Shown: positions 2,783 through 36,240 of the stretch, piece after piece
Numbering within the stretch: position 1 is the stretch's first letter
How the letters are laid out: each line of letters starts with the position of its first letter
Virus record (IMG/VR): IMGVR_UViG_3300033388_005412
Span: 139,295 to 203,294 of that record
DNA: 64,000 bases
Direction: 5' to 3' (one strand)
DNA from: a virus
Lineage: Duplodnaviria; Caudoviricetes
Made by a program: the position numbers and the translations under genes
The notes under the pieces: generated by a model
Told to the model about the DNA's origin: nothing
The model's database searches: none
What the model saw: the letters and a program-made list of their open reading frames with translations, nothing else

Positions 2783-2963
2783 TATATCTCCTCCATGCCC
2801 GTCGCATTTCTTTTGTCGGTTTTCCGTTTTTGTGATATGACTTAAATACATGAAATTTTTTAATCACCGGATTATTTTTAAGTTCTTCCATAATTTTTAC
2901 AGCATCAAATTCTTCGGGCATGCCCCATTTCTTTGTTTTATCTTCACTTTCACTTTGCATCAT
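2766..2963 (-). CDS. hypothetical protein
   Basis: AGGAGG directly upstream; first gene after the sigma70-type promoter at 2980-3008. Confidence 0.6.
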   Translation of the reverse strand: MMQSESEDKTKKWGMPEEFDAVKIMEELKNNPVIKKFHVFKSYHKNGKPTKEMRRAWRRYNVQKI

Positions 2964-2979
2964 TCCTCCTTTTTATAAA

Positions 2980-3008
2980 ATATTACAAAATCAGAAATCG
3001 GCTGTCAA
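2980..3008 (-). promoter_or_regulatory. sigma70-type promoter of the leftward operon
   Basis: Minus strand TTGACA-N17-TAATAT followed by AAAAAGGAGG and ATG. Confidence 0.75.
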
Positions 3009-3221
3009 GAGGCAAAAATTTTGTATATTTTTTTTGATAAATTCACATATAAAAAATCCTATATATACTGAAAAATTCCAATGTTTTCTGAAAATTTTTG
3101 TATATTTTTTCACGGGTAGGTAGTGTTATATATATGATATAACAAACTAATTTCACGGCCCCCCTTCTGTGATATTATGTAAATGATGGGGATGATAATA
3201 CATAAATGAAAAGGAGGAAAC

Positions 3222-3374
3222 ATGGAACATTTCGTTGTGTTAACAAGCATTGAACCCATAACAATTGCAATGCGTTACATCAGATGGAAGTATGGGAAAG
3301 ATGTGCTTGCTAGAGTTGTTCAAGAAGAACTTCATGATGTGATCATGAAAGTAGAGAAAAGGAGGTCATTATGA
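3222..3374 (+). CDS. small hypothetical protein (50 aa)
   Basis: AGGAGG then ATG; ATGA overlap with next gene. Confidence 0.6.
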   Translation: MEHFVVLTSIEPITIAMRYIRWKYGKDVLARVVQEELHDVIMKVEKRRSL

Positions 3375-3637
3375 CTATTTGTGAATCGTTGTTGTGTGGT
3401 GTGTTGGATAGTATTCCAGCATCTGCAAATGAAGTAGCTATGTCTGATTTAAACTATCAGGCAGGAAAAGAGTTCGGGCGCTCATTCAGTGAACTCGAAG
3501 CACACGAGGCCCTTCCCATAGCTAGGGAAATGGCCGATGTATGGAGTGAAGGAGTTGTGGCTGACTCTATCACACTAACGGATATATCAAGAGCCAGAAG
3601 ACTTGATAGAAAGATAGAAAGGAGGCGACTATGTTAA
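3371..3637 (+). CDS. hypothetical protein, paralog of 7551-7862
   Basis: LCGVLDSIPA/LCGMLDAVPA, FSELEAHEA/FGDLEAEEA and DRKIERR/MDKIERR shared with 7551. Confidence 0.75.
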   Translation: MTICESLLCGVLDSIPASANEVAMSDLNYQAGKEFGRSFSELEAHEALPIAREMADVWSEGVVADSITLTDISRARRLDRKIERRRLC

Positions 3638-3786
3638 GCACATGGTGGGTTGTGTGGGTTGTTGGTGGAGAAATAAGAAGTGGAATCATGGACTCATGTG
3701 AGATCATGCCAGTAAATGATGTTATCTCAAAACAAAGAGGTGATCTGGATGCTTTTGGTGACTTTTATAGTTATTGAATTAAACCA

Positions 3787-3848
3787 AAACTGAAGATATA
3801 CAAGTTTAGCTACATTGTGCGGTATTTAAAGTATATCATTAAAAGGAG
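3787..3848 (+). promoter_or_regulatory. conserved promoter/operator-like element, copy 1
   Basis: AAAACTGAAGATATACAAGTTT...TTTAAAGTATATCA then AGGAGG; GATATAC/GTATATC inverted repeat with 29-nt spacer. Confidence 0.65.
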
Positions 3849-3853
3849 GAATC

Positions 3854-4087
3854 ATGAGATTCTACAATCAGAGAGTGGCAACACGTCACTCAAGAAAGTT
3901 GGAGAGACTGGCTGCCAAAGCAACACAACAGGCGGCAATGACTAAACTCAGAGGCTTGTTTGGTGACAAGCAGCCTGACCCAGCAAAACAACCGGTAGAC
4001 AACACACCAGATGAACGTGATTACGCTGCATGGAATCGAAAAAGAAGAATAAGAGATATACATATGTGTCTCTCGGGGAGGTATTAA
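3854..4087 (+). CDS. hypothetical protein
   Basis: AGGAGG + ATG directly downstream of the conserved element. Confidence 0.65.
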   Translation: MRFYNQRVATRHSRKLERLAAKATQQAAMTKLRGLFGDKQPDPAKQPVDNTPDERDYAAWNRKRRIRDIHMCLSGRY

Positions 4088-4112
4088 TGGAATAAACCTT
4101 GGAATGTTGGCA

Positions 4113-4175
4113 AAAACTGAAGATATACAAGTTTTATCATAATGCATGGTTTTTAAAGTATATCACAACAGGAGG
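4113..4175 (+). promoter_or_regulatory. conserved promoter/operator-like element, copy 2
   Basis: Same two blocks and identical 29-nt spacing as copy 1, followed by AGGAGG. Confidence 0.65.
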
Positions 4176-4179
4176 AAGT

Positions 4180-4455
4180 ATGAAGCTTTTTGGAAAAATT
4201 GGTAACGTGGTTGACAACGTGATTGGTGATGTGATCACAAAAACAGGAACGGTTACAAAAGCTGTCTATGAGTCATCACCCAAAGACACTGTAAAAGTCA
4301 TTGGTGCAGGAATGAGAGGTGCAAAGGCAGTCATCAGCACATTGGCCGTAAGTACCAAAGAAGCTGTTGCCGCGAAACTGACAAAGTCTCCGGAAAAGAA
4401 AGAAACACCAGAAAACAAAACTGATGATTCTAACGACAGTGAAGAAGTAGCGTAA
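4180..4455 (+). CDS. hypothetical protein
   Basis: Start MKLFGK at 4180 after GGAGG; acidic C-terminal tail. Confidence 0.65.
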   Translation: MKLFGKIGNVVDNVIGDVITKTGTVTKAVYESSPKDTVKVIGAGMRGAKAVISTLAVSTKEAVAAKLTKSPEKKETPENKTDDSNDSEEVA

Positions 4456-4550
4456 CAACACATAGTCCTGAGCATGACTTATAAACTGCTCAAAAGGAGG
4501 TCTATGAAAACAAAACCTGGAACGTTGATTTTGAAGAAAGGAGAAATAAA

Positions 4551-4778
4551 ATGAAAGATGTTTTAAAAACAATTGGTAGTATGTATGCACTAGTTGGGAT
4601 TTTGTACTGGCCGATTATTCTGATGAGTCTCATCGGTTGGTCTATTGGCTGGGCTAATGAAGGGTTCAAATGGTTCATATGGAACTTTTCGCCGCCATAT
4701 GTTATTAACATCGTTGTGTTAGTAGCTATTGGAACAACCTTTAATATGCTTGTGTGGCTGAAGAAACTTTATAACTAA
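4551..4778 (+). CDS. small membrane protein
   Basis: AGGAG; two hydrophobic segments. Confidence 0.65.
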   Translation: MKDVLKTIGSMYALVGILYWPIILMSLIGWSIGWANEGFKWFIWNFSPPYVINIVVLVAIGTTFNMLVWLKKLYN

Positions 4779-4836
4779 GGAGGTGAATGAAAACAAAAAC
4801 TGGCCCGTTGATTTCGAAGAAGTAAAGGAGAACAAA

Positions 4837-5124
4837 ATGAATAATTACCTTAAAAATTATTGCACAGCATGCTGGGTTGTAATATTGCTACTTCTACCAT
4901 CATGGATATGTATCACCATGGGATGGACGTATGCGATTATCAATAGTGGACTTAAAACATTCATCTGGAGTTACAACACAGAAGAAGTACTATTCGTATT
5001 GGTCACGTGGGTGATGAGCATCCCATTAACTGTGATATGGATAAGAAATGTTATAACTAAAGATGATAATAATCTATGTGACGTAGCAGGGCAACTGTAT
5101 CTAAAACTAAGATCTGAAATATAA
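4837..5124 (+). CDS. small membrane protein, similar layout to 4551-4778
   Basis: AGGAG before MNNYL; two hydrophobic segments; GFKWFIWNF vs GLKTFIWSY. Confidence 0.6.
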   Translation: MNNYLKNYCTACWVVILLLLPSWICITMGWTYAIINSGLKTFIWSYNTEEVLFVLVTWVMSIPLTVIWIRNVITKDDNNLCDVAGQLYLKLRSEI

Positions 5125-5134
5125 GGAGGAGCCG

Positions 5135-6005
5135 ATGAAAACAACAGTGTTAAAAGTTGTTCCGTATCATGCTGATATACTGTGTAAGAACATTGTTATA
5201 TCATTCGGATTGACGCCCGAAAATAAGGTACGGGAAATGGCAAGATGGAAACCTGGAGCAGGCCGGATTTATAACCACAGTCAGTTACAAGTAAGTAAAG
5301 CGGAATGGATCACCATGTACAGGAGGGCATGTGCGATCCTAAAGAAGTACATTGAAGATAAGAAGCAGTTAACGCTAGAAATATAAAAAGGAGGAGAAAA
5401 TGAAAAAGATAGTTTTTGAAGCTTTAGTTAACAGAGCCAGAAGATCATACGGAATGAGACCGATTAAAACACCGTTTGGTATAAAGAAGGCCCGTGTCGT
5501 GTTCTATAACACAATGATCGGACACAATGTATCGAAAGATGATGCTCAGGCTGTAATGAAAACAGCCAGTATACCGCTGCATGCAGAAAAGGCTGTCCAT
5601 GGGGTAATCTTTGCCGGTTCTCATCTTATAACAACAAGCATTATGAGAGACGCGCTGAAAACAATCAAGACATGAGTTATGACAACTGGCTTGAAAAGAA
5701 GTTTGGTGAAAAAAGGCGCCGGCTTAAATTAAAGAACGAAGAAAGAAAATTAAATTCCAGTAAAACATCAGATGAATTTCATCGAAAGTTTATGGATTTA
5801 ATTGTCGAACGCGGAAAGAAGACAAGGAGGGACAATGCGATTGTATGTTAAAATGTATGGATGGCTGAAGTTTTTGTTCATGAAATGGCCGGGATTGATT
5901 AAATACATCCCTTCCGCTGAATGGCAGACATTATGGGCCAACATAGTATGGGAACAGGAACATGTCAGATGGGCTGATGAGTTTGATGTTGAAATAGAAG
6001 ATTAA
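5135..6005 (+). other. three small hypothetical genes (5135-5386, 5400-5675, 5835-6005)
   Basis: Each preceded by AGGAGG-type SD, co-directional. Confidence 0.6.
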
Positions 6006-6016
6006 AGGAGGAATAA

Positions 6017-6349
6017 ATGAAAAAGAAAAAAGCTAAAATTGGTGATATTATCAAAGCATCAAGGGATCTCAAAACTCTTTCACCTGAAAAAAGATTAAGC
6101 AAACTTCGAAAACTTATAGATGAAATACCATCATCTAAAACACCACATAAGAGTAAGATAAATCATGTCATTCCACGGTGCAATAGTCCGCTATTTGCCA
6201 AACCAGAGTGGATAAGAGATAATTGTATATATTCACCTAAATATGGGTACATAATCAAACCAAATTGGATGAGAGATAATTGTCTATGCTCGCTCAAATC
6301 ATTAATGGAAGCTGCAACAAGTGGATTGAATATTGAGATTAAAGACTAA
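6017..6349 (+). CDS. microprotein homologous to an internal (beta-like barrel) segment of the ~650-aa RNAP paralogs
   Basis: LSPEKRLSKLRKLIDEI..KT..K.KI...AKPEWIRDN aligns with LPIEKRLNRIQKLIGEM..KT..K.KI...AKPSWMRLN of 8037; own AGGAGG. Confidence 0.75.
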   Translation: MKKKKAKIGDIIKASRDLKTLSPEKRLSKLRKLIDEIPSSKTPHKSKINHVIPRCNSPLFAKPEWIRDNCIYSPKYGYIIKPNWMRDNCLCSLKSLMEAATSGLNIEIKD

Positions 6350-6358
6350 GGAGGTAAA

Positions 6359-6604
6359 ATGCAAATAATAGCAAATCTGATAATTCCTGATTATATTTAT
6401 GAAAATGGAAAAATCATAAAATATAAAAAATTATCAGACAAACAAAAACAGAATGTGAGAAAACAATGTCAACACGTAAGTATACTAAAACAACAACGCA
6501 TGAAAAGGATGAAACAACATACTTCGATCGACATACAGAAACTTAATGGAGCATTCACTGCATCGGATCTTGAAAAAATAAGAAAAATAAAGGAGGTAAA
6601 ATGA
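6359..6604 (+). CDS. microprotein homologous to the N-terminus of the RNAP paralogs
   Basis: MQIIANLIIPDYIYENG...KQNVRKQCQHVSIL vs MKIISNLIIPEFICEDG...KQDVRKHCQHVSVL of 32833. Confidence 0.8.
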   Translation: MQIIANLIIPDYIYENGKIIKYKKLSDKQKQNVRKQCQHVSILKQQRMKRMKQHTSIDIQKLNGAFTASDLEKIRKIKEVK

Positions 6605-6831
6605 CTAAATTAGAAATAGAATTTATGAAAAACTCGTTAATTTTCATTAAGAAATATAGTGAGTCTGATAAATTCAAAATTAAAAATCATACGGACTGTG
6701 CTCATCATGTTGTGTTGTTACATAACAAAGATCTTAGTGCAGTAGATGGAATGAAAACATATAAAAAAGGAACAATGAAAGAAAAAGATATAAAAATGTT
6801 ATTTGGATATCACACAAAGGAGGTAAAATGA
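6601..6831 (+). CDS. microprotein with similarity to an internal RNAP segment
   Basis: DLS...YKKGTMKEKDIKMLFGY vs DLS...YEKGLITEEDVKALFGY of 8037. Confidence 0.6.
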   Translation: MTKLEIEFMKNSLIFIKKYSESDKFKIKNHTDCAHHVVLLHNKDLSAVDGMKTYKKGTMKEKDIKMLFGYHTKEVK

Positions 6832-6974
6832 CAAGAAATCAATGGATTGGTTTAGGAGTTGTGGGAGTTATAGGCATAATTGCTTATAAGAAAAGAAAGA
6901 AGATTGCCAAAGTAACAAAGGAGATGTGGGACAAGGGAAAGAAAGCCTATGAAAACGAAAAGGAGGCTAAATGA
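6828..6974 (+). CDS. single-TM peptide, paralog of the N-terminus of 10024-10560
   Basis: IGLGVVGVIGIIAYKKR vs IGLGIIGGALGVVAYKKR; GGAGG SD. Confidence 0.7.
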   Translation: MTRNQWIGLGVVGVIGIIAYKKRKKIAKVTKEMWDKGKKAYENEKEAK

Positions 6975-7225
6975 ATAAAACACGCTCGATCATAGCTGAC
7001 CGATTAAAAACTAAAAACTGGTGGATAAAAATGGTAGAACGGGATAGAGATAGATTTGAAGAATTGTTTATAACTGAAAAAGGAAAAACGATGAGATTAA
7101 TTAACGTGCTAAAAAGAATAGCAAACATCGAATATAAGAATAAATCAGTTATAGATAAAAATGTTTTTATAACTATAAGAGGCATTATCTTAAAGGCAAT
7201 TGCAGATAATGAGAAGAATCAATGA
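6971..7225 (+). CDS. hypothetical protein
   Basis: AGGAGG, ATGA overlap. Confidence 0.6.
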   Translation: MNKTRSIIADRLKTKNWWIKMVERDRDRFEELFITEKGKTMRLINVLKRIANIEYKNKSVIDKNVFITIRGIILKAIADNEKNQ

Positions 7226-7248
7226 GATAATGTATTACTACCTGGAAT

Positions 7249-7503
7249 GGCCGCCGCAAGGCGGCCTCAATAAATAATGAATACTCAAAATCACCAAAAT
7301 CAACAAAACAGTACTCAAATCAGTAATCAAATCAACAAAACAGTACTTAAAACAATAAATCAAATAATTAAATACAAATGTGATGAAATCACAAATCAAA
7401 TAGTATCAAACAATATCAAATAGTATCAACTATTATCTATTATATATAATAGGAAGAAACAAAGAGAAATGGTGTTAAATGAAGGCGGCCGCGGAAGCGG
7501 CCT
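7249..7503. repeat. G-poor repeat tract bracketed by two GC-rich GNRA hairpins
   Basis: GGCCGCC-GCAA-GGCGGCC and GGCCGC-GGAA-GCGGCC flank AATCAACAAAACAGTACT x2 and TCAAATAGTATCAA x2. Confidence 0.7.
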
Positions 7504-7550
7504 TGAACCGATTGTCATATAGTAAAATATGAACAGCCAAAGGAGACAGA

Positions 7551-7862
7551 ATGTCAGAACAAGAACTGAGATTATGTGGAATGTTGGATGCTGTACCTGC
7601 CCGGTTGGGATGGGTATTTCAAAAGGATGCCGATTTGGTAGCCAGAGAGGAGTATCACAGAGAGTTCGGCGATTTGGAGGCCGAAGAGGCGATTTCTGTG
7701 AGTGAAGAGGTGATCAGCACTTGGCTTGTTGGCGGTGAAGGTCCGGTCATGACATGTGTTGGTGTACGTAAGTATTACAATCTCATGGATAAGATCGAAA
7801 GGAGGATGGTTGAACTGAAGCATGATGTGATGCGGGTTGCCGAAATTACAGACACACCCTAG
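7551..7862 (+). CDS. hypothetical protein, paralog of 3371-3637
   Basis: AAGGAG SD; motifs shared with 3371. Confidence 0.75.
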   Translation: MSEQELRLCGMLDAVPARLGWVFQKDADLVAREEYHREFGDLEAEEAISVSEEVISTWLVGGEGPVMTCVGVRKYYNLMDKIERRMVELKHDVMRVAEITDTP

Positions 7863-7872
7863 AGGAGAGATA

Positions 7873-8046
7873 ATGAAACATAAGATTGAATTAAGGACTA
7901 GAGATGGAACAGCTCGTGAACTTACTTTGATCATTAAACACAAATTAAATGATGGCAAGATTATAAAACTGTCTAAACATGCGGTTTTATTCAGGACTCT
8001 AACAGAGTCTTATGTTAAGGCAAGTAGGAGGAAAAAATGGAAATGA
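7873..8046 (+). CDS. small basic hypothetical protein
   Basis: AGAGGAG SD before MKHKIE; overlaps the RNAP start. Confidence 0.55.
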   Translation: MKHKIELRTRDGTARELTLIIKHKLNDGKIIKLSKHAVLFRTLTESYVKASRRKKWK

Positions 8047-10022
8047 AAATGAATGTCATTAGTGACCTGATTGTCGCTGAGTTCCTTTATAAAGGAATTG
8101 GCGAAAAGTTAAGGGAAACGGCGAAATTGAAAGGTGCTGAGAGAAAACATGTAATGGGTAGGAGCCATCACATAAGTTTTCTAAGAAACAGGCCGAATTT
8201 AAGAAGGATATTCGAAAATACCTTTACAATTATGAAGGACAACGGTAGTTATACCGATGATGAATATCTTGATGTTTGTAAGAGGGCCAGGGAATCCGGT
8301 TATGTGCCGCAATGGAATGTTAAACGTGCTCATGGAGGAGGCCAGGGCGCTCATGCATGCGGTAAAATAGAATTCGGTAAATCTCAGATCATAGAAGATA
8401 TCCTTAAAGAGGATAATATGCTGGAAGAATTTAGAAATCTTCCTATTGAGAAGAGATTAAATAGAATTCAGAAGCTTATAGGTGAGATGACAAGGTTTAA
8501 AACAGAACCTAAAGTTAAGATTGGGTTTGCCGCCAAAACATACAATGGTATTGTATGGGCAAAACCGAGCTGGATGAGGCTTAATGGTATCTCAATGGGC
8601 GCGAAGACCACAAATGTGTTAAAGTCTCTAATTATGCCTCTGGAGGCCTTGGAAGTGACTGATTATGACATGCTTGTGAGTCCGGAGGAAAATAAATTTA
8701 ACTTAAGTGAGGAAAAGCTTGGTTGTTTAATCAGGTGGGTTCCAAGATTATCACCTAAATCTTTGTTCAGCAGGAACTTAAGAAGGAAGTTTTCAGATAA
8801 GCTTGGAAGAAATCCCCAGATGAAATGGGATTTATTAAGCTTGGTTAATCATATTCCGGATGTTGACTTGTCACATGAGAGGGATATGTACGAGAAGGGG
8901 CTTATCACAGAAGAAGATGTAAAGGCTTTATTCGGTTATGAAAAGAATGGAGAAACAGTGATTCGCCCGGTAGGTAAGCGTATCCTGGCCGGGGAGTCTA
9001 TATTTCATCCGGATATATGGGTAGAGCTTGAAAAACCTTTTAAGAAAATGGTTTTGAATAAGCTGCAGCCGAGAATCAAGGGTATTTATGGAGTGGCTAT
9101 GCCGAAATCCATGTTAAAAATGATACCGAATGAGGCGATTTACTATAAAGCATGGGTTACGAGGTATCCCTGGGTTCTTCCTATTCTTACAAAGATAGGT
9201 GTATGGGAAGGTATGATATTTGTTGATGAAGAGTTATGGGAGATGTTTGGTGGTGATTTTGATGGTGATCAGGCAGCTGCATTTGATTGGGATTCTTTGA
9301 CAACTGATCTCTATCTGGATAGGGATAAAGAGTGGCTGAAGAAGGCCATGAAGATGCCTGTTAAAGAGCCGGCTAACTTTGAAGGCAGAACAGAAGAAGA
9401 AGTTATAGCTAAGCAGCTTAGTCAGTATTCAGGCTGTGGAACTGTGTATAATAATGCTATGACTATAGTGGATGCTGCCAGGGCCGCGGAGTGGAAGTTT
9501 AATGATCTTGTAAAGCTGCAGGCTTATTTGTATGCTAACATAGTTCAGCCTTTTATAGATGGGTTCAAATATAAAGGCGCCAACCATGTACCAAGTCTGT
9601 ATGACATGGTTACAAGAGTTGATGATAAGTTTGATTATCTTTCTATGAAGGAAACAATGAGACTTCGTGATTTTTATAGAGCAATAAGAAGCCGCGGTAG
9701 TTTTATGGATTTAACTGATGTGGCTAAACTCGCCAACGCTGATTCTAAAAGCTTTTATGAAAGAGTTGTCTCTATCTTCAAGGGGTGGAAAAGAGGTGAT
9801 TATATCCCGGTTCCCGCGCTTGATGAGACCATCGCGAAAACAGTGAAAACCAGTTTTGTGAAGTATGGCCGTAATGTTGAGGCGAGATATGATAGCTTTA
9901 ACTATTTGATAACAAGTACTGAAGTACTGAAGGAGGTAATAAGAAATTGTTATGAGAGAAAGGATTACAGTTTGGCTGAGTATTTAGTTGTGAAATTGAA
10001 TGTTGTTGCAGAGGAGGTGTAA
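8037..10022 (+). CDS. putative single-subunit two-barrel RNA polymerase (paralog 1)
   Basis: GAKTTNVLKSLIMP...DMLVSP (beta GDK...KG...DIVLNP-like), QPRIKGIYGV, VTRYP, IFVDEELWEMFGGDFDGDQAAAF (beta' NADFDGD-like), IDGFKYKG. Confidence 0.8.
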   Translation: MEMKMNVISDLIVAEFLYKGIGEKLRETAKLKGAERKHVMGRSHHISFLRNRPNLRRIFENTFTIMKDNGSYTDDEYLDVCKRARESGYVPQWNVKRAHGGGQGAHACGKIEFGKSQIIEDILKEDNMLEEFRNLPIEKRLNRIQKLIGEMTRFKTEPKVKIGFAAKTYNGIVWAKPSWMRLNGISMGAKTTNVLKSLIMPLEALEVTDYDMLVSPEENKFNLSEEKLGCLIRWVPRLSPKSLFSRNLRRKFSDKLGRNPQMKWDLLSLVNHIPDVDLSHERDMYEKGLITEEDVKALFGYEKNGETVIRPVGKRILAGESIFHPDIWVELEKPFKKMVLNKLQPRIKGIYGVAMPKSMLKMIPNEAIYYKAWVTRYPWVLPILTKIGVWEGMIFVDEELWEMFGGDFDGDQAAAFDWDSLTTDLYLDRDKEWLKKAMKMPVKEPANFEGRTEEEVIAKQLSQYSGCGTVYNNAMTIVDAARAAEWKFNDLVKLQAYLYANIVQPFIDGFKYKGANHVPSLYDMVTRVDDKFDYLSMKETMRLRDFYRAIRSRGSFMDLTDVAKLANADSKSFYERVVSIFKGWKRGDYIPVPALDETIAKTVKTSFVKYGRNVEARYDSFNYLITSTEVLKEVIRNCYERKDYSLAEYLVVKLNVVAEEV

Positions 10023-10023
10023 C

Positions 10024-10560
10024 ATGGATAAAAGACTTTTGATTGGATTAGGTATTATAGGCGGCGCGCTTGGTGTCGTTGCCTATAAAAAGAGAGAAGA
10101 GCTTGCTGTGTTTGGGAAGAAAATGCTGAAAGCGTATATGATAGGCGCCAGACAGCATGAGGAATATATGTATGGTGATCCAGATGCGGCAGTTGGTGAT
10201 ATGCTTGATGGCGTTGGTGAACTTGCCAGGGCTGATGATAAGTATATCTCACATTTCTTTTCGTTTCATGCGACAGGTGTGACGTTTAAAGATAGACAGG
10301 ATCTTATAAGATATACGAATAAGGACACTGGCTTGCATTTTAAGAAGAATCCTGTTGAAGAAGACAAGAATGCTGTGGCGATTGTGGATGATCATAGTAG
10401 AATTCTTGGTTGGGTTCCTAGAACCATAGCTCCGCATATAGGTGGTAAGATGGACAAGGAGTTGATTAACATAGTGTCATGGAGAAAAGTAGGTGGGGAG
10501 AATGATTATAAGTATGGTCTTGTTATAACTGTTGATGATAAAACAATTGAATATGCTTAG
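10024..10560 (+). CDS. HIRAN-domain protein with N-terminal transmembrane helix
   Basis: FHATGVTF..RQ, LHFKKNP..DKNAVAI, ILGWVPR..APHI pattern of HIRAN; start at 10024 after GAGGAGG. Confidence 0.75.
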   Translation: MDKRLLIGLGIIGGALGVVAYKKREELAVFGKKMLKAYMIGARQHEEYMYGDPDAAVGDMLDGVGELARADDKYISHFFSFHATGVTFKDRQDLIRYTNKDTGLHFKKNPVEEDKNAVAIVDDHSRILGWVPRTIAPHIGGKMDKELINIVSWRKVGGENDYKYGLVITVDDKTIEYA

Positions 10561-10772
10561 GTGTAGAGAGTTTATTCAAAACCCGGAGGATTCCCATTCT
10601 GAATACCTCGCCCGGCAGAAGGCCGGGAATATGAAAGAGAAGAATCAGAAACGGACTCTTGTGAAGGGATTACACGTTTTTCCCATGAAAAATTGGCAGA
10701 ATTACACGTTTTTGACAGGAAGAATACAATTTGTTGAAGTAAAGAATGCCCATATAGGGTGAAGGAGATAAG

Positions 10773-11268
10773 ATGAAAACAAGAGAAGTTGAGCTGTTCA
10801 TTGATGATGAACTGATTAATCTGGTGGTTGATGAGCATGATCAAATCATAGCGCCGGAAGAGTACAAAGAAGATTCATTGATTGATCTGATACAGTATGA
10901 ACATGATTATGCGATTGAAATTGGTAGTGTTGAGTGGCTGGAGGGGATACGCAAAGCCAGGAAATTAAAGGCCGCGGCCCAGACTGCGGCATGGAACGAT
11001 TTGGTCCCGGAGAACGGCCATCTGAAGAAGGACGGATACATAGGAGGAGCAGATGAAAGAAATTAAAGCATGGGAGACCAGTGATGATATGATTTTCGAT
11101 TCAAAGAAAGATGCGAGAATTCATCAGCGGTTTATTGATTTCAAGCGTAGTGCCGAAAACTTTGTTGAGAAACATATGTGTCATGAGAATGATAAAGACG
11201 ACGTCCTGAGAATGCTGCTTGAGCATAGACGTGAATTGTATGATATGCTCAAAAAGGCCGAAGATTAA
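10773..11268 (+). other. two small hypothetical genes (10773-11066, 11053-11268)
   Basis: GAAGGAG and AGGAGG SDs; overlapping. Confidence 0.6.
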
Positions 11269-11274
11269 TGCAAG

Positions 11275-11333
11275 GACTGAAGCATAGAACGAAGCATGGA
11301 ACGTCATTCCATGCGATCTTCTATGCTGCAGTC
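11275..11333. other. long imperfect hairpin
   Basis: GACTG-A-AGCATAGAA-CGAA-GCATGGAA / TTCCATGC-GATC-TTCTATGCT-G-CAGTC with loop CGTCA. Confidence 0.75.
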
Positions 11334-11379
11334 GTGCAGTTATGTGATTTTTGGCACATAAATCATGAAAAAGGGTTGA

Positions 11380-11745
11380 TTTACTACTATATATATACTT
11401 AACTTATAATATATACTAGTAATTTATTATAATATGTTATTATAATAAAGAAACCTAACTAGAATATACATAACAATTATAATAAATCTTATTATAATAA
11501 AAAAGCTTATTAAAAATAGACACTATTATTATAATAAAATATCATAAGTCTATTAATGATATACTAGTATAATACAGTCTATTTAGGACTCATTTGACGA
11601 ATCTATCATCAGAGTCCAGTAGGGGCTACACTTGGACTCATATGATAGCCGCGAGGATACGTTACAGCTAAGAATATAACTGTGCAAATACTATTTAATA
11701 GTACTTTATAGTACTTAATAGTACTTAATAGTATTTGATTCAAAT
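11380..11745. other. very AT-rich non-coding tract with 10-bp tandem repeats (origin-like)
   Basis: ORF-free, nearly all A/T over 11380-11580; ATAGTACTT(T/A) repeated about 4 times at 11699-11738. Confidence 0.5.
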
Positions 11746-32293: not shown

Positions 32294-32820
32294 ATGGGTG
32301 AATACGCTGATGAATTAATTTTTAATGGATTTAGTGATATGGGAGCATCAGATTATTGCGAACAAATACCGTTTGTTATTAACCCATTTTATCGCAAACC
32401 AAGAAAAGCCAAATATGAATATAAAAAAATAGTCAGACAAACTGATAAGGCCTGGCTTATCGAATTTTCTGGTGGTGCCAAAAAATGGTTACCAAAAAGT
32501 AAATGTGATATAGATAAAAAATTTATTTATATTCCAGAATGGCTCGAAAGAAGAATAATTATGATAGAATTACGTAATGAATTACGACGTGGATATATTT
32601 GAAAAATAAATAAGGAGGTGGAATGTCTAAAACATTAAACTGGATAAGGAAGAAAATTCATTGTCCTTATTGCTGGGACATAATAAATATTAATATTGAT
32701 ATTTGCCAGGAACCTTTGGCATATAATGAAAAAATAACAGGAGGTGAACGCACATGTCCGAATTGTAAAAGAATAATAACTGATCAGAACCTAAAGCATT
32801 GTCATTTTATCGAAGAATAA
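32294..32820 (+). other. two hypothetical genes (32294-32602, 32623-32820 with CxxC pairs)
   Basis: 32294 contains TDKAWLI..WLPKSK..IPEWL; 32623 has GGAGG SD. Confidence 0.6.
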
Positions 32821-32832
32821 TAGGGAGAGCGC

Positions 32833-34779
32833 ATGAAAATAATATCAAATTTAATAATTCCTGAATTCATATGTGAAGACGGTATATTGACAAGTTATGA
32901 GAAATTACATCCGAAAATAAAACAGGATGTGAGAAAACACTGTCAGCATGTAAGTGTACTGACTTACAGACCGTATATGCGCCGAATTTTAGATAATTCA
33001 TTTACTGTAATGAAATTCGGAGGATCATTTATCGGCGATGAATATTTAGAATTAGTAAAGAAAGCTAAAACTAAAGGATACATAGCACAATGGAATGTCA
33101 AGAGAACACATGGCGGCGGCCGAGGTGCTAAATCGTGGGGCAAAATAGAATTTGCCAGAACACAGATTATAGAAGATATCGTTAAAGAACTGGGTTTTCA
33201 TGAAGAATTCATGAGATTACCGATGGGTAAAAGAATGAACCGCATACAGAAAATAATAGGCGAAATGCACGATTTTCAGATAAAGCCCAGAGTTAAAATA
33301 GTTGGCGATATGGACAAATTCGAGGGATTGCTTTTCGGACGCATAAAATGGATGAGGAAAAATGGAATTGAGCCGGGTGCTAAAACAACTTTAGCAACTA
33401 AGGGGCTTATATTCCCGACGCCAAAACATATTAAATGTGATGCTGACTTACTTGTTCCTGCAGGCGAGAATAAATTCGGCTTAAATGAGGAAAAGTTATC
33501 CGAATTAATAAAATGGATACCAAGATTAACGCCGGGATCACTATTCAGTAGAAATCTTAGACGGAAAAATTCAGATATCCTAGGACGAAATCCGCAGGCA
33601 AAATGGGACCTTCAGGCATTTCTTGATTTTATACCTGAAACTGATTTAACGGAACATAAAGCTGTGTTTGAAGGTAAATTAATGAATGATAAAATTGTCG
33701 ATACATTATTCGGATATAAACAAAAAGGTGAAAAGAAATTAAGATTTCATGGTATGCGGTTGAAGGCCAAAGAATCATTATTTCATCCTGAAGTATGGAA
33801 TGAGGCAGTTAAAACATTAGAAAAATGGATTAGCAAATCAATGCAGCCTGAAGTAAAAGGGCTTTATGGTGTTGTTATGCCGATAAGTCTGTTGAAAATT
33901 ATAAATGAAGAGAGCCATGAATTTGAGGCGTATGTTACAAGGTTTCCATGGGTTACGCCGATAAGAACAAAAATAGCATTATGGAAAGATATAATATTTG
34001 TTCCGGATGATTTATGGAAAGCATTCGGCGGAGATTATGATGGTGACCAAGGGGCCGCGTTTTATAAACATACTATGAATACAGGATTATTATGGAAACG
34101 TGACAAAGAATGGCTTAAGCGTATAATGACACTTCCTGAGAAAGAAGATGATGCTTCAAATAAAAGTGAAGATGAAGTTATCGCGATACAACTTGATCAG
34201 TACGCATATTGCGGACGTATTTATAATAGTGGAAAGATTGTTGTTGACGCGGCGAGAATGGAAGGTTGGGGCCAAAGAGAAATCCAGGAACTGGACATGA
34301 AAATAGCAGCAACTGATGTTCAGCCGTATATAGACGGCTTTAAATATAAAGCCGGTGTAAAACCCTTGAGTGTTTATGAACTTGCTGATAAATATTGTGT
34401 GTCAAAAAAATGTGTTGGCAAAGTGAAAACATATTTTAACGCATTAAGAGGCAGCAAAAGCGGAATAGAACTTGTGGTTGCTCTCTCGAAATTCGCACAT
34501 CCGGAAAGTAAAAGTTTCTATGAAAGAATTGTCAGCAAATTTAAAGAATTCCGTAAAGGTGATTATAAGGAAGTTAACAAAATTCCTATTGATATGGAAA
34601 AGGCGATTAAATATAGTTATGTTAAACACAGAGATGACTTGGACTCAAGATATTTAAGTTTTGAAAAATATTTAAAAACCAATGAACTTATTAACGGCGC
34701 TATAAGAAATTGTTTTGACAGGCGGGATGTCAGAATGGCAAGATTTATACACGAAAAGAAAGAACTTGAAAAATCATAA
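32833..34779 (+). CDS. putative single-subunit two-barrel RNA polymerase (paralog 2)
   Basis: KFEGLLFG, GAKTTLATKGLIFP..ADLLVP, QPEVKGLYGV, VTRFP, IFVPDDLWKAFGGDYDGDQGAAF, YIDGFKYK; colinear with 8037-10022. Confidence 0.8.
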   Translation: MKIISNLIIPEFICEDGILTSYEKLHPKIKQDVRKHCQHVSVLTYRPYMRRILDNSFTVMKFGGSFIGDEYLELVKKAKTKGYIAQWNVKRTHGGGRGAKSWGKIEFARTQIIEDIVKELGFHEEFMRLPMGKRMNRIQKIIGEMHDFQIKPRVKIVGDMDKFEGLLFGRIKWMRKNGIEPGAKTTLATKGLIFPTPKHIKCDADLLVPAGENKFGLNEEKLSELIKWIPRLTPGSLFSRNLRRKNSDILGRNPQAKWDLQAFLDFIPETDLTEHKAVFEGKLMNDKIVDTLFGYKQKGEKKLRFHGMRLKAKESLFHPEVWNEAVKTLEKWISKSMQPEVKGLYGVVMPISLLKIINEESHEFEAYVTRFPWVTPIRTKIALWKDIIFVPDDLWKAFGGDYDGDQGAAFYKHTMNTGLLWKRDKEWLKRIMTLPEKEDDASNKSEDEVIAIQLDQYAYCGRIYNSGKIVVDAARMEGWGQREIQELDMKIAATDVQPYIDGFKYKAGVKPLSVYELADKYCVSKKCVGKVKTYFNALRGSKSGIELVVALSKFAHPESKSFYERIVSKFKEFRKGDYKEVNKIPIDMEKAIKYSYVKHRDDLDSRYLSFEKYLKTNELINGAIRNCFDRRDVRMARFIHEKKELEKS

Positions 34780-35553: not shown

Positions 35554-36240
35554 ATGGATATGAGAACTGTAATAACAATGGGTGAAATGCTTAAGGCCGG
35601 AAAGAATAAAGAAATGTGTGATATTATTCTTAAACGGATTGAGCCTTTTATGGTATTTATATCAGGAAAGATTTACCATTTTTACGGTGCAAAATATGAC
35701 AGCAGCATATCATTCGACGATATAAAACAATTTGTAACGGTTTCTATGATCATGGCTATTAGAAAATATAATCCTAAAAACTACGATAAGAAGAAAGATA
35801 AATCAGGTAGTAAAAAATATATGAACGGATTCAGTTACATAGAGACGATTGGAAAAAGAATTGTAAGATCATATTATGAATATCAACATAGAAAAAAAAG
35901 AATACCGCCTGAAAAAATAACGAGTCTGAATATAATTATTGATGATTATGGTAATGAACTACAGTCAATATTATGTGAACCCGAAAACGATGATATAGAT
36001 GTTTTTAATATCAAAAAAATAGTAAATAAATTTCATGGTTCATATGTCGATAGCGCTGACGAGAGAATGCATTTGTATGATGTAATGAAAATGATAATGA
36101 TCGATGACATGACATATGGTGAAGTTGGAAAAGTTTATAATATATCTAAACAGGCGATGCATAAAATAGTAAAGAATCATATTGTTAAGGAGCTGAAACG
36201 TGAAAACAAACAACGAACTGCAGAAAATCCTTATATGTAA
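35554..36240 (+). CDS. phage sigma70-like factor
   Basis: Region 2-like FDDIKQ...AIRKYNP...FSYI; SLN linker; region 4 HTH MTYGEVGKVYNISKQAMHKI. Confidence 0.78.
   Translation: MDMRTVITMGEMLKAGKNKEMCDIILKRIEPFMVFISGKIYHFYGAKYDSSISFDDIKQFVTVSMIMAIRKYNPKNYDKKKDKSGSKKYMNGFSYIETIGKRIVRSYYEYQHRKKRIPPEKITSLNIIIDDYGNELQSILCEPENDDIDVFNIKKIVNKFHGSYVDSADERMHLYDVMKMIMIDDMTYGEVGKVYNISKQAMHKIVKNHIVKELKRENKQRTAENPYM

Follow-up and report, generated by a model that had tools for sequence, protein, structure and literature searches.

The window analysed here, which is the last 64 kb (positions 139,295 to 203,294) of the 203,294-bp virus record IMGVR_UViG_3300033388_005412, carries near its start two groups of genes on the + strand, modules I and II (Table 1). 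Module II contains the gene of a small acidic protein (gene 7551), a small basic open reading frame (ORF), the gene of a predicted single-chain RNA polymerase (RNAP-A), and a gene with a HIRAN-like domain. Module I contains a paralog of the acidic gene (gene 3371), a run of small ORFs, and a 1.2-kb chain of five consecutive microgenes, gap-free from position 6359 onward, four of which resemble pieces of polymerase and HIRAN-like genes. The present analysis indicates that module I probably arose by an old head-to-tail duplication of the polymerase module; it would then have decayed and been patched, with frames that can still be translated. A second full-length polymerase gene of the same virus, RNAP-B, appears to have contributed one of the pieces.

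Homology between the Two Modules

The tblastx comparison of positions 3200-7530 with 7500-10700 yields one linked chain of same-strand matches between the modules (Table 1). The blastp searches of the microgenes, run against all 1582 genome ORFs of at least 30 amino acids (aa), agree with it. Genes 3371 and 7551 match with E 1e-12 and 36% identity over 78-81 aa. ORF6017 (aa 8-71) matches RNAP-A aa 119-185 with E 3e-8, the value for RNAP-B being 0.003, and ORF6359 (aa 1-78) matches RNAP-B aa 1-79 with E 4.5e-17 and 44% identity, compared with 6e-5 and 26% for RNAP-A. ORF6601 (aa 23-71) pairs with RNAP-A aa 265-302 (E 0.006), and ORF6828 (E 1.7e-4) with ORF10000, the frame that includes the start of the gene following RNAP-A. 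In the latter pair, the first 33 aa of the microgene product align start to start with the first 34 aa of the HIRAN-like protein (44% over 34 aa, Gumbel p 7e-7).

The Smith-Waterman scores were evaluated against 1000 composition-preserving shuffles per pair. For each of the five pairs, the hydrophobic ORF6828 pair included, the observed score is reached by 0/1000 shuffles; ORF6601 scores 65 against RNAP-A, with a shuffle mean of 31.7, while its score against RNAP-B is reached by 272/1000. The five paralog similarities on which the original prediction of two diverged copies of one module was founded (3371 with 7551, the three RNAP microgenes, and 6828 with the HIRAN N-terminus) are thus real and formally significant, with the ORFs located as in Table 1. 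The control pairs are at noise level, and two further candidates were accordingly rejected: ORF6971 as a HIRAN remnant (score reached by 964/1000 shuffles), and 7837 as a paralog of 3631 (879/1000) or 3854 (1000/1000). Extensions of the ORF6601 match to its aa 1-26 (with RNAP-A aa 219-242) and of the ORF6017 match to its tail (with RNAP-A aa 197-213) have no shuffle support either, and the first 26 aa of ORF6601 are left with no supported match. No parent of ORF6971 was found among the genome ORFs by blastp.

It is scarcely credible that these resemblances are due to chance or low complexity rather than to homology. Spurious alignments do occur between short sequences rich in lysine or hydrophobic residues, and in a search of 7460 six-frame genome pieces with a hidden Markov model (HMM) of the 54-member polymerase family the E-values of ORF6017 and ORF6601 are just 0.12, ORF6601 aligning to positions 262-300 of the model. 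Against this stand the shuffles of all five pairs, the controls, and the ranking in the same HMM search, where three adjacent microgenes come 3rd to 5th, directly behind the two full polymerase genes.

Within 3371-6974, on the same strand, lies a copy or a piece of each of the genes 7551, RNAP-A, and HIRAN, and gene 3371, the RNAP-A aa 115-185 and aa 265-302 pieces, and the HIRAN aa 1-34 piece are colinear with module II. The common order claimed for the two modules therefore holds at the coarse level (acidic gene, RNAP pieces, transmembrane (TM) piece) and fails within the RNAP pieces, which run aa 115-185, aa 1-79, aa 265-302, ORF6359 being the one that breaks it. Nor is module I simply a copy of module II, because it includes about 2.4 kb of small genes (3640-6010) without significant tblastn match to 7551, 7837, RNAP-A, RNAP-B, or HIRAN; these genes between 3371 and the relics appear to be unrelated to module II.

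Lineage and Age of the Pieces

The two full-length polymerases, RNAP-A and RNAP-B, are 46% identical over 648 aa; RNAP-B has a Zn-ribbon neighbour (32623..32820), and a sigma-like protein is encoded at 35554..36240. Of the 81 residues of ORF6359, 33 agree with RNAP-B and 19 with RNAP-A; of its derived residues, 21 are shared with B and 6 with A, or 13 with B and 6 with P0002, a member of the A clade. Its nucleotide (nt) identity with RNAP-B is 70% over codons 1-47. ORF6017, on the other hand, shares 11 derived residues with A and 2 with B, and in the family tree it groups with RNAP-A and the ortholog fragment P0037 at a support of 93/100, within the A clade at 96/99.

The age of each pair was assessed from the number of residues that are identical and also use the same codon, relative to the number expected at saturation. 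For ORF6359 and RNAP-B, 23/34 codons are the same with 15.6 expected (p 0.009), i.e., the synonymous sites are unsaturated. Saturation is found for 3371 and 7551 (14/28, 11.8 expected), ORF6017 and RNAP-A (14/26, 12.5 expected), ORF6601 and RNAP-A (11/17, 9.3 expected), and ORF6828 and HIRAN (5/13, 5.3 expected), as well as for the two full polymerases (134/285, 126.9 expected). The saturated synonymous sites of the four module pairs fit one old event, and the B-like character of ORF6359 together with its unsaturated codons suggests that it was inserted later, out of order, from a different gene lineage. By this measure the four saturated pairs would be equally old without being datable, and the ORF6359 and RNAP-B pair would be younger.

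The old tandem duplication of the original prediction is hence retained in part. Three of the four module II genes have upstream same-strand copies, their codons are saturated, and ORF6017 falls in the RNAP-A lineage. A single origin of all pieces fails, since ORF6359 is a younger RNAP-B-type piece and the third paralog, RNAP-B, had been omitted. Similarly, one copy was indeed cut down to peptides, with the qualification that one of these peptides comes from an RNAP-B-type gene.

Start Signals and Evolution of the Microgenes

All five GGAGG motifs in 6017-7225 (5/5) lie directly upstream of the ATG codons of the five ORFs. The 14-mer AAGGAGGTAAAATG has three copies in the 203-kb genome, all at the starts of ORF6359, ORF6601, and ORF6828, and is unlike the ribosome-binding sites (RBSs) of the parental genes. 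Parental start codons are used by ORF6359 and ORF6828 only, ORF6017 and ORF6601 starting inside the parental frame. The private 14-mer and the different parental sites imply that the start signals were not inherited but made or copied locally, contrary to the proposal that the peptides had kept their Shine-Dalgarno sites. That one private 14-nt cassette is found at three ORFs also suggests that the chain was built by recombination or copying at gene junctions. Four ORFs of the chain are joined by ATGA stop/start overlaps, through which ORF6601 overlaps both of its neighbours.

None of ORF6017, ORF6359, and ORF6601 reaches residues 349-417 of the polymerase, and the two catalytic barrels with the aspartate triad (D407/D409/D411) are absent from all three. 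Because both catalytic barrels are missing, the microgene peptides cannot polymerise RNA, and the microgenes are best described from their sequences as polymerase-family derivatives, neither polymerases nor a split polymerase. The conserved GAKTT stretch is missing from the microgenes as well, ORF6017 having lost it, and ORF6017 contains an internal tandem duplication of 19 codons (KPxW[IM]RDNC; 6199-6242 and 6256-6299, 80% nt identity, 0/2000 shuffles).

The pieces have outpaced their parents in rate of change by a factor of about 3-17. Counted as unique changes in fragment and parent, the values are 24 and 2 for ORF6017, 17-20 and 6 for ORF6359, and 17 and 1 (outgroup P0002) or 13 and 6 (outgroup B) for ORF6601. 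The composition of the pieces has drifted to 42-50% A and 16-23% Lys (parents: 30-38% and 9-12%, respectively), and among the 64 one-kilobase intervals of the window AT skew peaks at positions 6001-7000. Identities at the three codon positions are nearly flat between ORF6017 and RNAP-A (65/56/50), compared with 63/69/40 between RNAP-A and RNAP-B. Taken together, the fast change, the A and Lys drift, and the flat codon-position identity indicate relaxed constraint.

The microgenes nevertheless do not look like a pseudogene with broken frame and lost start signals, as there are five open ORFs, each with an AAGGAGG-type RBS and an ATG. In a neutral simulation, the probability that the four homologous stretches are jointly free of stops is 2e-7 if all divergence is assigned to the relic and 2e-4 if half of it is. 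A protein similarity that has outlasted synonymous saturation points either to long constraint on the copy, maybe as a long-working third polymerase, or to peptides that are still weakly constrained. Most likely, the microgenes are leftovers that are translated and kept open for their own sake or for operon coupling. The translation of the ORFs in 6017-7225 is presumed from their frames and start signals, and a regulatory role under selection, though possible, lacks support.

Origin of Module I

On the reading that we favour, module I would be the remains of an older head-to-tail copy of module II, made within the RNAP-A lineage. The acidic gene of this copy would survive intact as the faster-evolving paralog 3371, and deletions would have cut the polymerase and HIRAN genes of the copy to three pieces in parental order. 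An RNAP-B-type 5' fragment would later have been inserted between the aa 115-185 and aa 265-302 pieces, and unrelated small genes, about 2.4 kb in all, would have come to separate 3371 from the relics. Together with ORF6971, for which no parent was found, the four pieces would now form a chain of coupled small ORFs behind strong RBSs, built by recombination or copying at gene junctions via the 14-nt cassette. One segmental duplication and this order of events are what we infer from the homology, order, and rates described above.

Several observations weigh against this scheme. There are only four colinear anchors, and order alone is weak evidence that separate local duplications could mimic. 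No duplication junction is visible, positions 2960-3375 and 7226-7555 sharing only 7-12-mers, and none of the relatives retrieved covers the stretch 3371-10560. The pairwise ratios of nonsynonymous to synonymous change (dN/dS) are 0.31-0.40, derived from 37-78 near-saturation codons, at which neutral and weakly constrained evolution are inseparable. A search of 5.8 billion clusters turned up nothing of 44-142 aa that matches ORF6359. Approximately unbiased (AU) tests are compatible with ORF6359 both as sister of B (p 0.31) and in the wider A clade (0.38), a position as sister of RNAP-A being borderline (0.052), and with a grouping of ORF6017 and B (p 0.18); ORF6601 is unplaced on the tree. The placement is weak because the fragments are short, and since AU tests are permissive on short alignments, the mixed origin rests mainly on the shared-residue counts and the codon test rather than on the trees.

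To the plainer version, in which a single tandem duplication was followed by passive decay of copy I with the parental Shine-Dalgarno sites kept, we give little credence. It would account for the shared coarse order and strand, for the saturation of four pairs, and for the parental start codons of ORF6359 and ORF6828. It does not account for ORF6359, which is B-like, out of order, and younger, nor for the starts of ORF6017 and ORF6601 inside the parental frame and the RBS cassette private to the relic cluster, and the open frames exceed the neutral expectation. Also, no family member shows a B-like 5' end with the order 115-185 / 1-79. An opposite explanation, unlikely in our judgement, dispenses with the module duplication: fragments of RNAP-A, RNAP-B, and HIRAN would have accumulated, as in a junk-yard or nursery, through small duplications and illegitimate recombination at RBS microhomologies, and 3371 and 7551 would be an independent tandem gene duplication. 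The mixed A and B origin with differing ages, the private 14-mer at three junctions, the weakness of a four-anchor order, and the presence of more local duplications (in ORF6017, 4551/4783, and a 53-nt repeat) speak for it. However, the neighbouring 3.9 kb contain copies of three of the four module II genes, parental order is kept by the A-type and TM pieces, and paralogs are otherwise few, with 17 pairs genome-wide in 1088 ORFs. Moreover, no such fragments occur near RNAP-B, elsewhere in the genome, or in 16 related loci (156 kb).

The favoured duplication has also to be weighed against readings in which the peptides are selected. The microgenes might encode early basic micro-proteins, for example decoys (N-terminal domain, clamp connector) for a partner of RNAP-A or RNAP-B that set the timing of phage transcription or tune it, along with a membrane peptide derived from the HIRAN anchor; we find this rather unlikely. 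Frames open far beyond the neutral expectation, the strongest RBSs of the stretch, ATGA coupling, and a protein similarity that persists despite synonymous saturation would all be expected of such peptides, and ORF6359 corresponds to an N-terminal RNAP stretch (aa 1-79) that is modelled as several helices and strands. The very fast, lysine-biased drift points the other way, as do the absence of a similar-length ortholog of ORF6359 from the 5.8 billion clusters, unlike 3371 and 7551, and the absence of fragment relics from the family's other phages; the open frames, for their part, could merely preserve translational coupling and avoid operon polarity. We hold it improbable, too, that the chain is a fragment nursery, where pieces of polymerases and of the HIRAN anchor are placed behind a private RBS cassette and kept as early micro-proteins acting on the polymerases or their partners. 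An RNAP-B N-terminal-domain decoy, for instance, could delay the switch from RNAP-A to RNAP-B transcription. If this were true, the phage would regulate its own transcription with domesticated polymerase shards.

Table 1. Features of modules I and II, matches between the modules, and related genes (pI, isoelectric point; coordinates are those of the window unless a locus is given)
Feature	Coordinates	Strand	Description
Module I	3371-7225	+	acidic gene, small ORFs, relic microgenes
Gene 3371	3371..3637	+	small acidic protein of copy I, 88 aa, pI 4.9, intact
Small-ORF region	3631..6005	+	about 2.4 kb, without module II counterpart
ORF6017	6017..6349	+	110 aa, pI 9.8, RNAP-A-type aa 115-185, new start, RBS AAAGGAGGAATAAATG
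ORF6359	6359..6604	+	81 aa, pI 10.1, RNAP-B-type aa 1-79, at parental start codon
ORF6601	6601..6831	+	76 aa, aa 23-71 from RNAP-A-type aa 265-302 (connector/clamp region), new start
ORF6828	6828..6974	+	48 aa, hydrophobic N-terminal segment and lysine-rich tail
ORF6971	6971..7225	+	84 aa, pI 10.2, last coupled microgene, RBS AAAAGGAGGCTAAATG
Spacer between modules	7226..7550		325 bp
Module II	7551-10560	+	acidic gene, basic ORF, RNAP-A, HIRAN-like gene
Gene 7551	7551..7862	+	small acidic protein of copy II, 103 aa, pI 4.6, paralog of 3371
Small basic ORF	7873..8046	+	57 aa, between 7551 and RNAP-A, RBS AGAGGAGAGATAATG
RNAP-A	8037..10022	+	661 aa, intact, predicted single-chain two-barrel RNA polymerase
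HIRAN-like gene	10024..10560	+	178 aa, hydrophobic N-terminal anchor and HIRAN-like domain
RNAP-B	32833..34779	+	second full-length paralog, closest relative of ORF6359
tblastx pair	3383-3625 / 7563-7805		36% of 81 aa
tblastx pair	6065-6229 / 8427-8591		40% of 55 aa
tblastx pair	6721-6810 / 8850-8939		40% of 30 aa
tblastx pair	6828-6926 / 10024-10125		
HIRAN homolog after polymerase	L007:12127-12618		
HIRAN homolog after polymerase	L011:8686-9165		
HIRAN homolog after polymerase	L014:1563-2030		
HIRAN homolog after polymerase	L016:1224-1715		
HIRAN homolog after polymerase	L018:4715-5341		

The Polymerase and the HIRAN-like Protein of Module II

RNAP-A has no match in Pfam, PHROG, NCBIfam, or, by phmmer, the PDB sequences, and its assignment comes from the predicted structure. 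The AlphaFold2 (AF2) model, built from a ten-sequence alignment, has a predicted local distance difference test (pLDDT) score of 85 and displays two double-psi beta-barrels in one chain within a polymerase architecture. Foldseek returns 24 matches at E<=0.001, and the matches listed are all QDE-1, RDR2, or Thermus-phage RNAPs. VIA Z values are 12.5, 11.2, and 9.9 over 427-494 residues, with double-psi beta-barrel matches at 153-237. The DxDGD triad is present: residues 405-411 read GGDFDGD, the family form is GGD[FY]DxD, and G405, G406, D407, D409, and D411 are invariant in 10/10 aligned sequences. Judging by the modelled fold and the DFDGD motif, RNAP-A would be a single-chain two-barrel RNA polymerase, for which RNA synthesis is predicted.

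The family is tiny: a search of 1.84 billion proteins finds 64 representatives at E<=1e-3. The giant proteins P0058, P0060, and P0062 (1632-2501 aa) match the polymerase profile at positions of about 105-228 or 108-427 and have, in addition, a PIF1-type helicase, a DUF1848, and/or an RNase H domain; they are probably fusions of a polymerase-like piece with nucleic-acid enzymes. An ORF of 2105 aa on the - strand of the present genome, 48,620-42,306 bases before the window start, matches the profile with E 0.15, and this weak match falls at the DxDGD region (positions 376-410).

The other genes of module II before RNAP-A are less informative. The 7551 protein belongs to no known family (Pfam, PHROG, NCBIfam, ESM Atlas); its top ESM Atlas score is 0.86, under the 0.9 lead level, and its own model is poor. 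A predicted complex of RNAP-A with 7551 scored 0.00 in both runs, which, given the uncertain fold of 7551, is evidence neither way. The basic ORF has no copy in module I (3200-7550 searched).

The HIRAN-like gene starts at 10024, within ORF10000, as fixed by the RBS AGAGGAGGTGTAACATG, and hydropathy shows its protein to have a hydrophobic N-terminus. Residues 70-178, modelled with a pLDDT of about 80, give a VIA Z of 10.9 to 3k2y (97 aligned residues, root-mean-square deviation 3.3) and of 8.7-9.3 to the HLTF HIRAN domain, other folds reaching at most 6.7. All of the top 17 Foldseek matches are HIRAN domains (17/17, probability 1.0, E 1e-3 to 6e-3). At the sequence level, 3/5 family members match the Pfam HIRAN family PF08797 below threshold (best E 0.012, 15.8 bits compared with a cut-off of 24.7), and the family profile gives only noise against the PDB sequences. 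The modelled domain has a HIRAN fold, with binding of a free 3' DNA end being putative.

A HIRAN homolog lies directly 3' of the polymerase gene in 5/13 polymerase-bearing loci examined from distant relatives (Table 1), which makes polymerase and HIRAN a conserved pair in the RNAP family; HIRAN may be a conserved partner of these compact polymerases. Compared with the homologs in L007, L011, L014, L016, and L018, only the gene of the window has the hydrophobic N-terminal anchor.

Relatives

Gene 3371 has the orthologs P0072 (76%) and P0073 (71%), and gene 7551 the orthologs P0069 (90%) and P0071 (78%), from which it follows that the copy-I gene evolves faster. For both P0073 (3371 type) and P0069 (7551 type) the record names a single JGI contig of 9204 bp, and the simplest reading is that the two share it. 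The occurrence of both acidic-gene types in a relative would place the acidic-gene duplication before the split from that relative. The 90% clusters of the microgenes are singletons.

Searches of viral contigs with RNAP-A, P0073, and the A6 profile gave no loci. With the A1 profile, 16 related loci were obtained (5 viral, 10 from metagenomes, and 1 from a genome); these add up to 156 kb and contain no polymerase fragments and no 3371/7551 homolog. An ortholog of RNAP-B in L005 (90%) has kept the neighbours of B, without such a module.

Some further members of the family are of interest in their own right. L006 and L007 form one 48-kb viral contig of another uncultured phage, in which two compact polymerase paralogs, belonging to two deep and different clades of the family tree, lie a few kb apart with a HIRAN neighbour at one only. 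The RNAP-A ortholog of a close relative is represented by an N-terminal ORF (P0037, 191 aa), with an out-of-frame tail after 'AKPSWMR', and by a separate C-terminal ORF (P0001, 458 aa); this split could be a frameshift, an assembly error, or the result of contig ends. L020, a 28-kb contig in a metagenome-assembled genome labelled as a Natrialbaceae archaeon, carries a full-length member 39% identical to RNAP-A. Either this is a misbinned virus contig or the family reaches haloarchaeal viruses.

Genome Setting

The record's two ends share an overlap of only 114 bp, which indicates that the assembly is circular and its starting point arbitrary. Beyond position 3000 or so, the + strand carries almost every gene, so that the stretch forms the head of a long rightward gene block; upstream of it, RNA ligase and AAA ATPase genes are found on the - strand. 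An AT-rich 20-mer of the AAAATTTTTGTATATTTTTT type occurs twice (3014-3033 and 3091-3110, 95% identical) in the divergent intergenic region before the block. Paralogy in the genome is sparse: the 1088 ORFs of at least 40 aa form just 17 pairs at E<1e-4, 5/17 of which touch the stretch. Positions 3000-11000 have 0 matches in a DNA search of 50,697 phage records, an Rfam scan of 2800-11500 gives nothing at E<=0.1, a search for sequencing runs with 3200-10600 lists none, and a scan for sigma-70-like promoters is uninformative (34 sites, 31 expected). The small ORFs yield only sub-threshold noise (PLN_propep, prpE) and unnamed PHROGs when searched against Pfam, PHROGs, and NCBIfam.

Within the small-ORF region, 4551 and 4783 are tandem paralogs encoding TM proteins (0/1000 shuffles). 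The DNA around their starts (4494-5124) is 87% identical over 45 nt, and each is preceded or overlapped by a short 'MKTK...' mini-ORF with its own AAGGAGGT site. The 53-nt element at 3786-3838 and 4113-4165 (81% identical, first 22 nt the same) occurs only twice in the genome, in both cases just upstream of one of two consecutive small genes, where it might serve as a phage promoter or 5' leader.

The spacer between the modules contains GC-rich hairpins at 7249-7266 and 7484-7502 within a surrounding of 31-36% GC, according to a terminator-like scan. They flank A-rich tandem repeats (7286-7437, Tandem Repeats Finder), namely a 32-nt unit repeated 2.1 times at 7297-7365 and a 10-nt unit repeated 4.3 times at 7395-7437, which are followed by a 16-nt palindrome at 7437-7452. 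The spacer is possibly a terminator plus a promoter or regulatory region, or an origin-like element.

Comparison with Known Systems

Fragment remnants of this kind have a general precedent. Segmental duplication followed by the decay of one copy leaves remnants in fast-changing phage regions, such as the 'hyperplastic' regions of T4-like phages. The present case resembles these in having adjacent same-strand copies, one intact and one truncated, and differs in that the remnants are a mosaic of two polymerase paralogs and have been repackaged as a coupled ORF chain behind a private RBS cassette. Single-chain two-barrel RNAPs, the kind to which RNAP-A would belong, are likewise known elsewhere, YonO of the B. 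subtilis phage SPbeta being one.

The closest parallels to RNAP-A are the non-virion RNAPs of Thermus phages, P23-45 gp64 / P32 gp64 (8F72) and P74-26 gp62 (8F5M), in which one chain of roughly 600 aa likewise contains two double-psi beta-barrels in a crab-claw architecture. RNAP-A has a VIA Z of 11.2 over 427 residues to 8f5m and Foldseek E-values of 1.9e-5 and 1.9e-4 to the Thermus-phage RNAPs. Unlike these, it has no sequence-level match to any PDB chain, and unlike the Thermus phages, the present virus has two full paralogs of the small enzyme along with decayed pieces and a linked HIRAN-like gene. In P23-45 the small polymerase gene is transcribed very early, among the first (Chaban et al. 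2024, PMC10770324), and by likeness to this phage the stretch studied here may be expressed early as well. The two polymerases of one Thermus phage were traced to gene duplication in the same paper, whose consulted sections contain no mention of fragment microgenes (PMC10770324). Our literature search, outside which the supplements of PMC10770324 fall, likewise gave no report of polymerase-fragment microgenes.

RNAP-A also resembles QDE-1, RDR2, and gp66 from phi14:2, a crAss-like phage (5fsw, E 8e-8; 7w84, Z 12.5; 7y7p, Z 9.9; 6vr4, Z 7.6), with which it has the DxDGD metal site in common. Those enzymes are much larger, and the identity is only 10-13%. The fold of residues 70-178 of the HIRAN-like protein is like that of HLTF HIRAN (4XZG/4S0N) and of L. 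plantarum lp_0118 (3K2Y), the difference being that the present domain carries a hydrophobic anchor at its N-terminus and that its gene is linked to that of a phage polymerase.

Overall, the history of modules I and II is a tidy but fairly ordinary one of gene duplication and decay. Its value is that the stretch dates and orders events within a very small and recently recognised family of compact phage RNAPs: the duplication of a polymerase and HIRAN module, the loss of one copy, and a later patch from the other paralog. It is also a clean natural example of how gene debris in a packed phage operon can be re-framed as short, coupled, and strongly initiated ORFs. If the peptides turn out not to be functional, the chain is an ordinary duplication relic, whose microgenes should not be annotated as a split polymerase. 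If they are made and functional, it would document a route from a gene fragment to a phage micro-protein, and possibly to a self-regulator of phage transcription.

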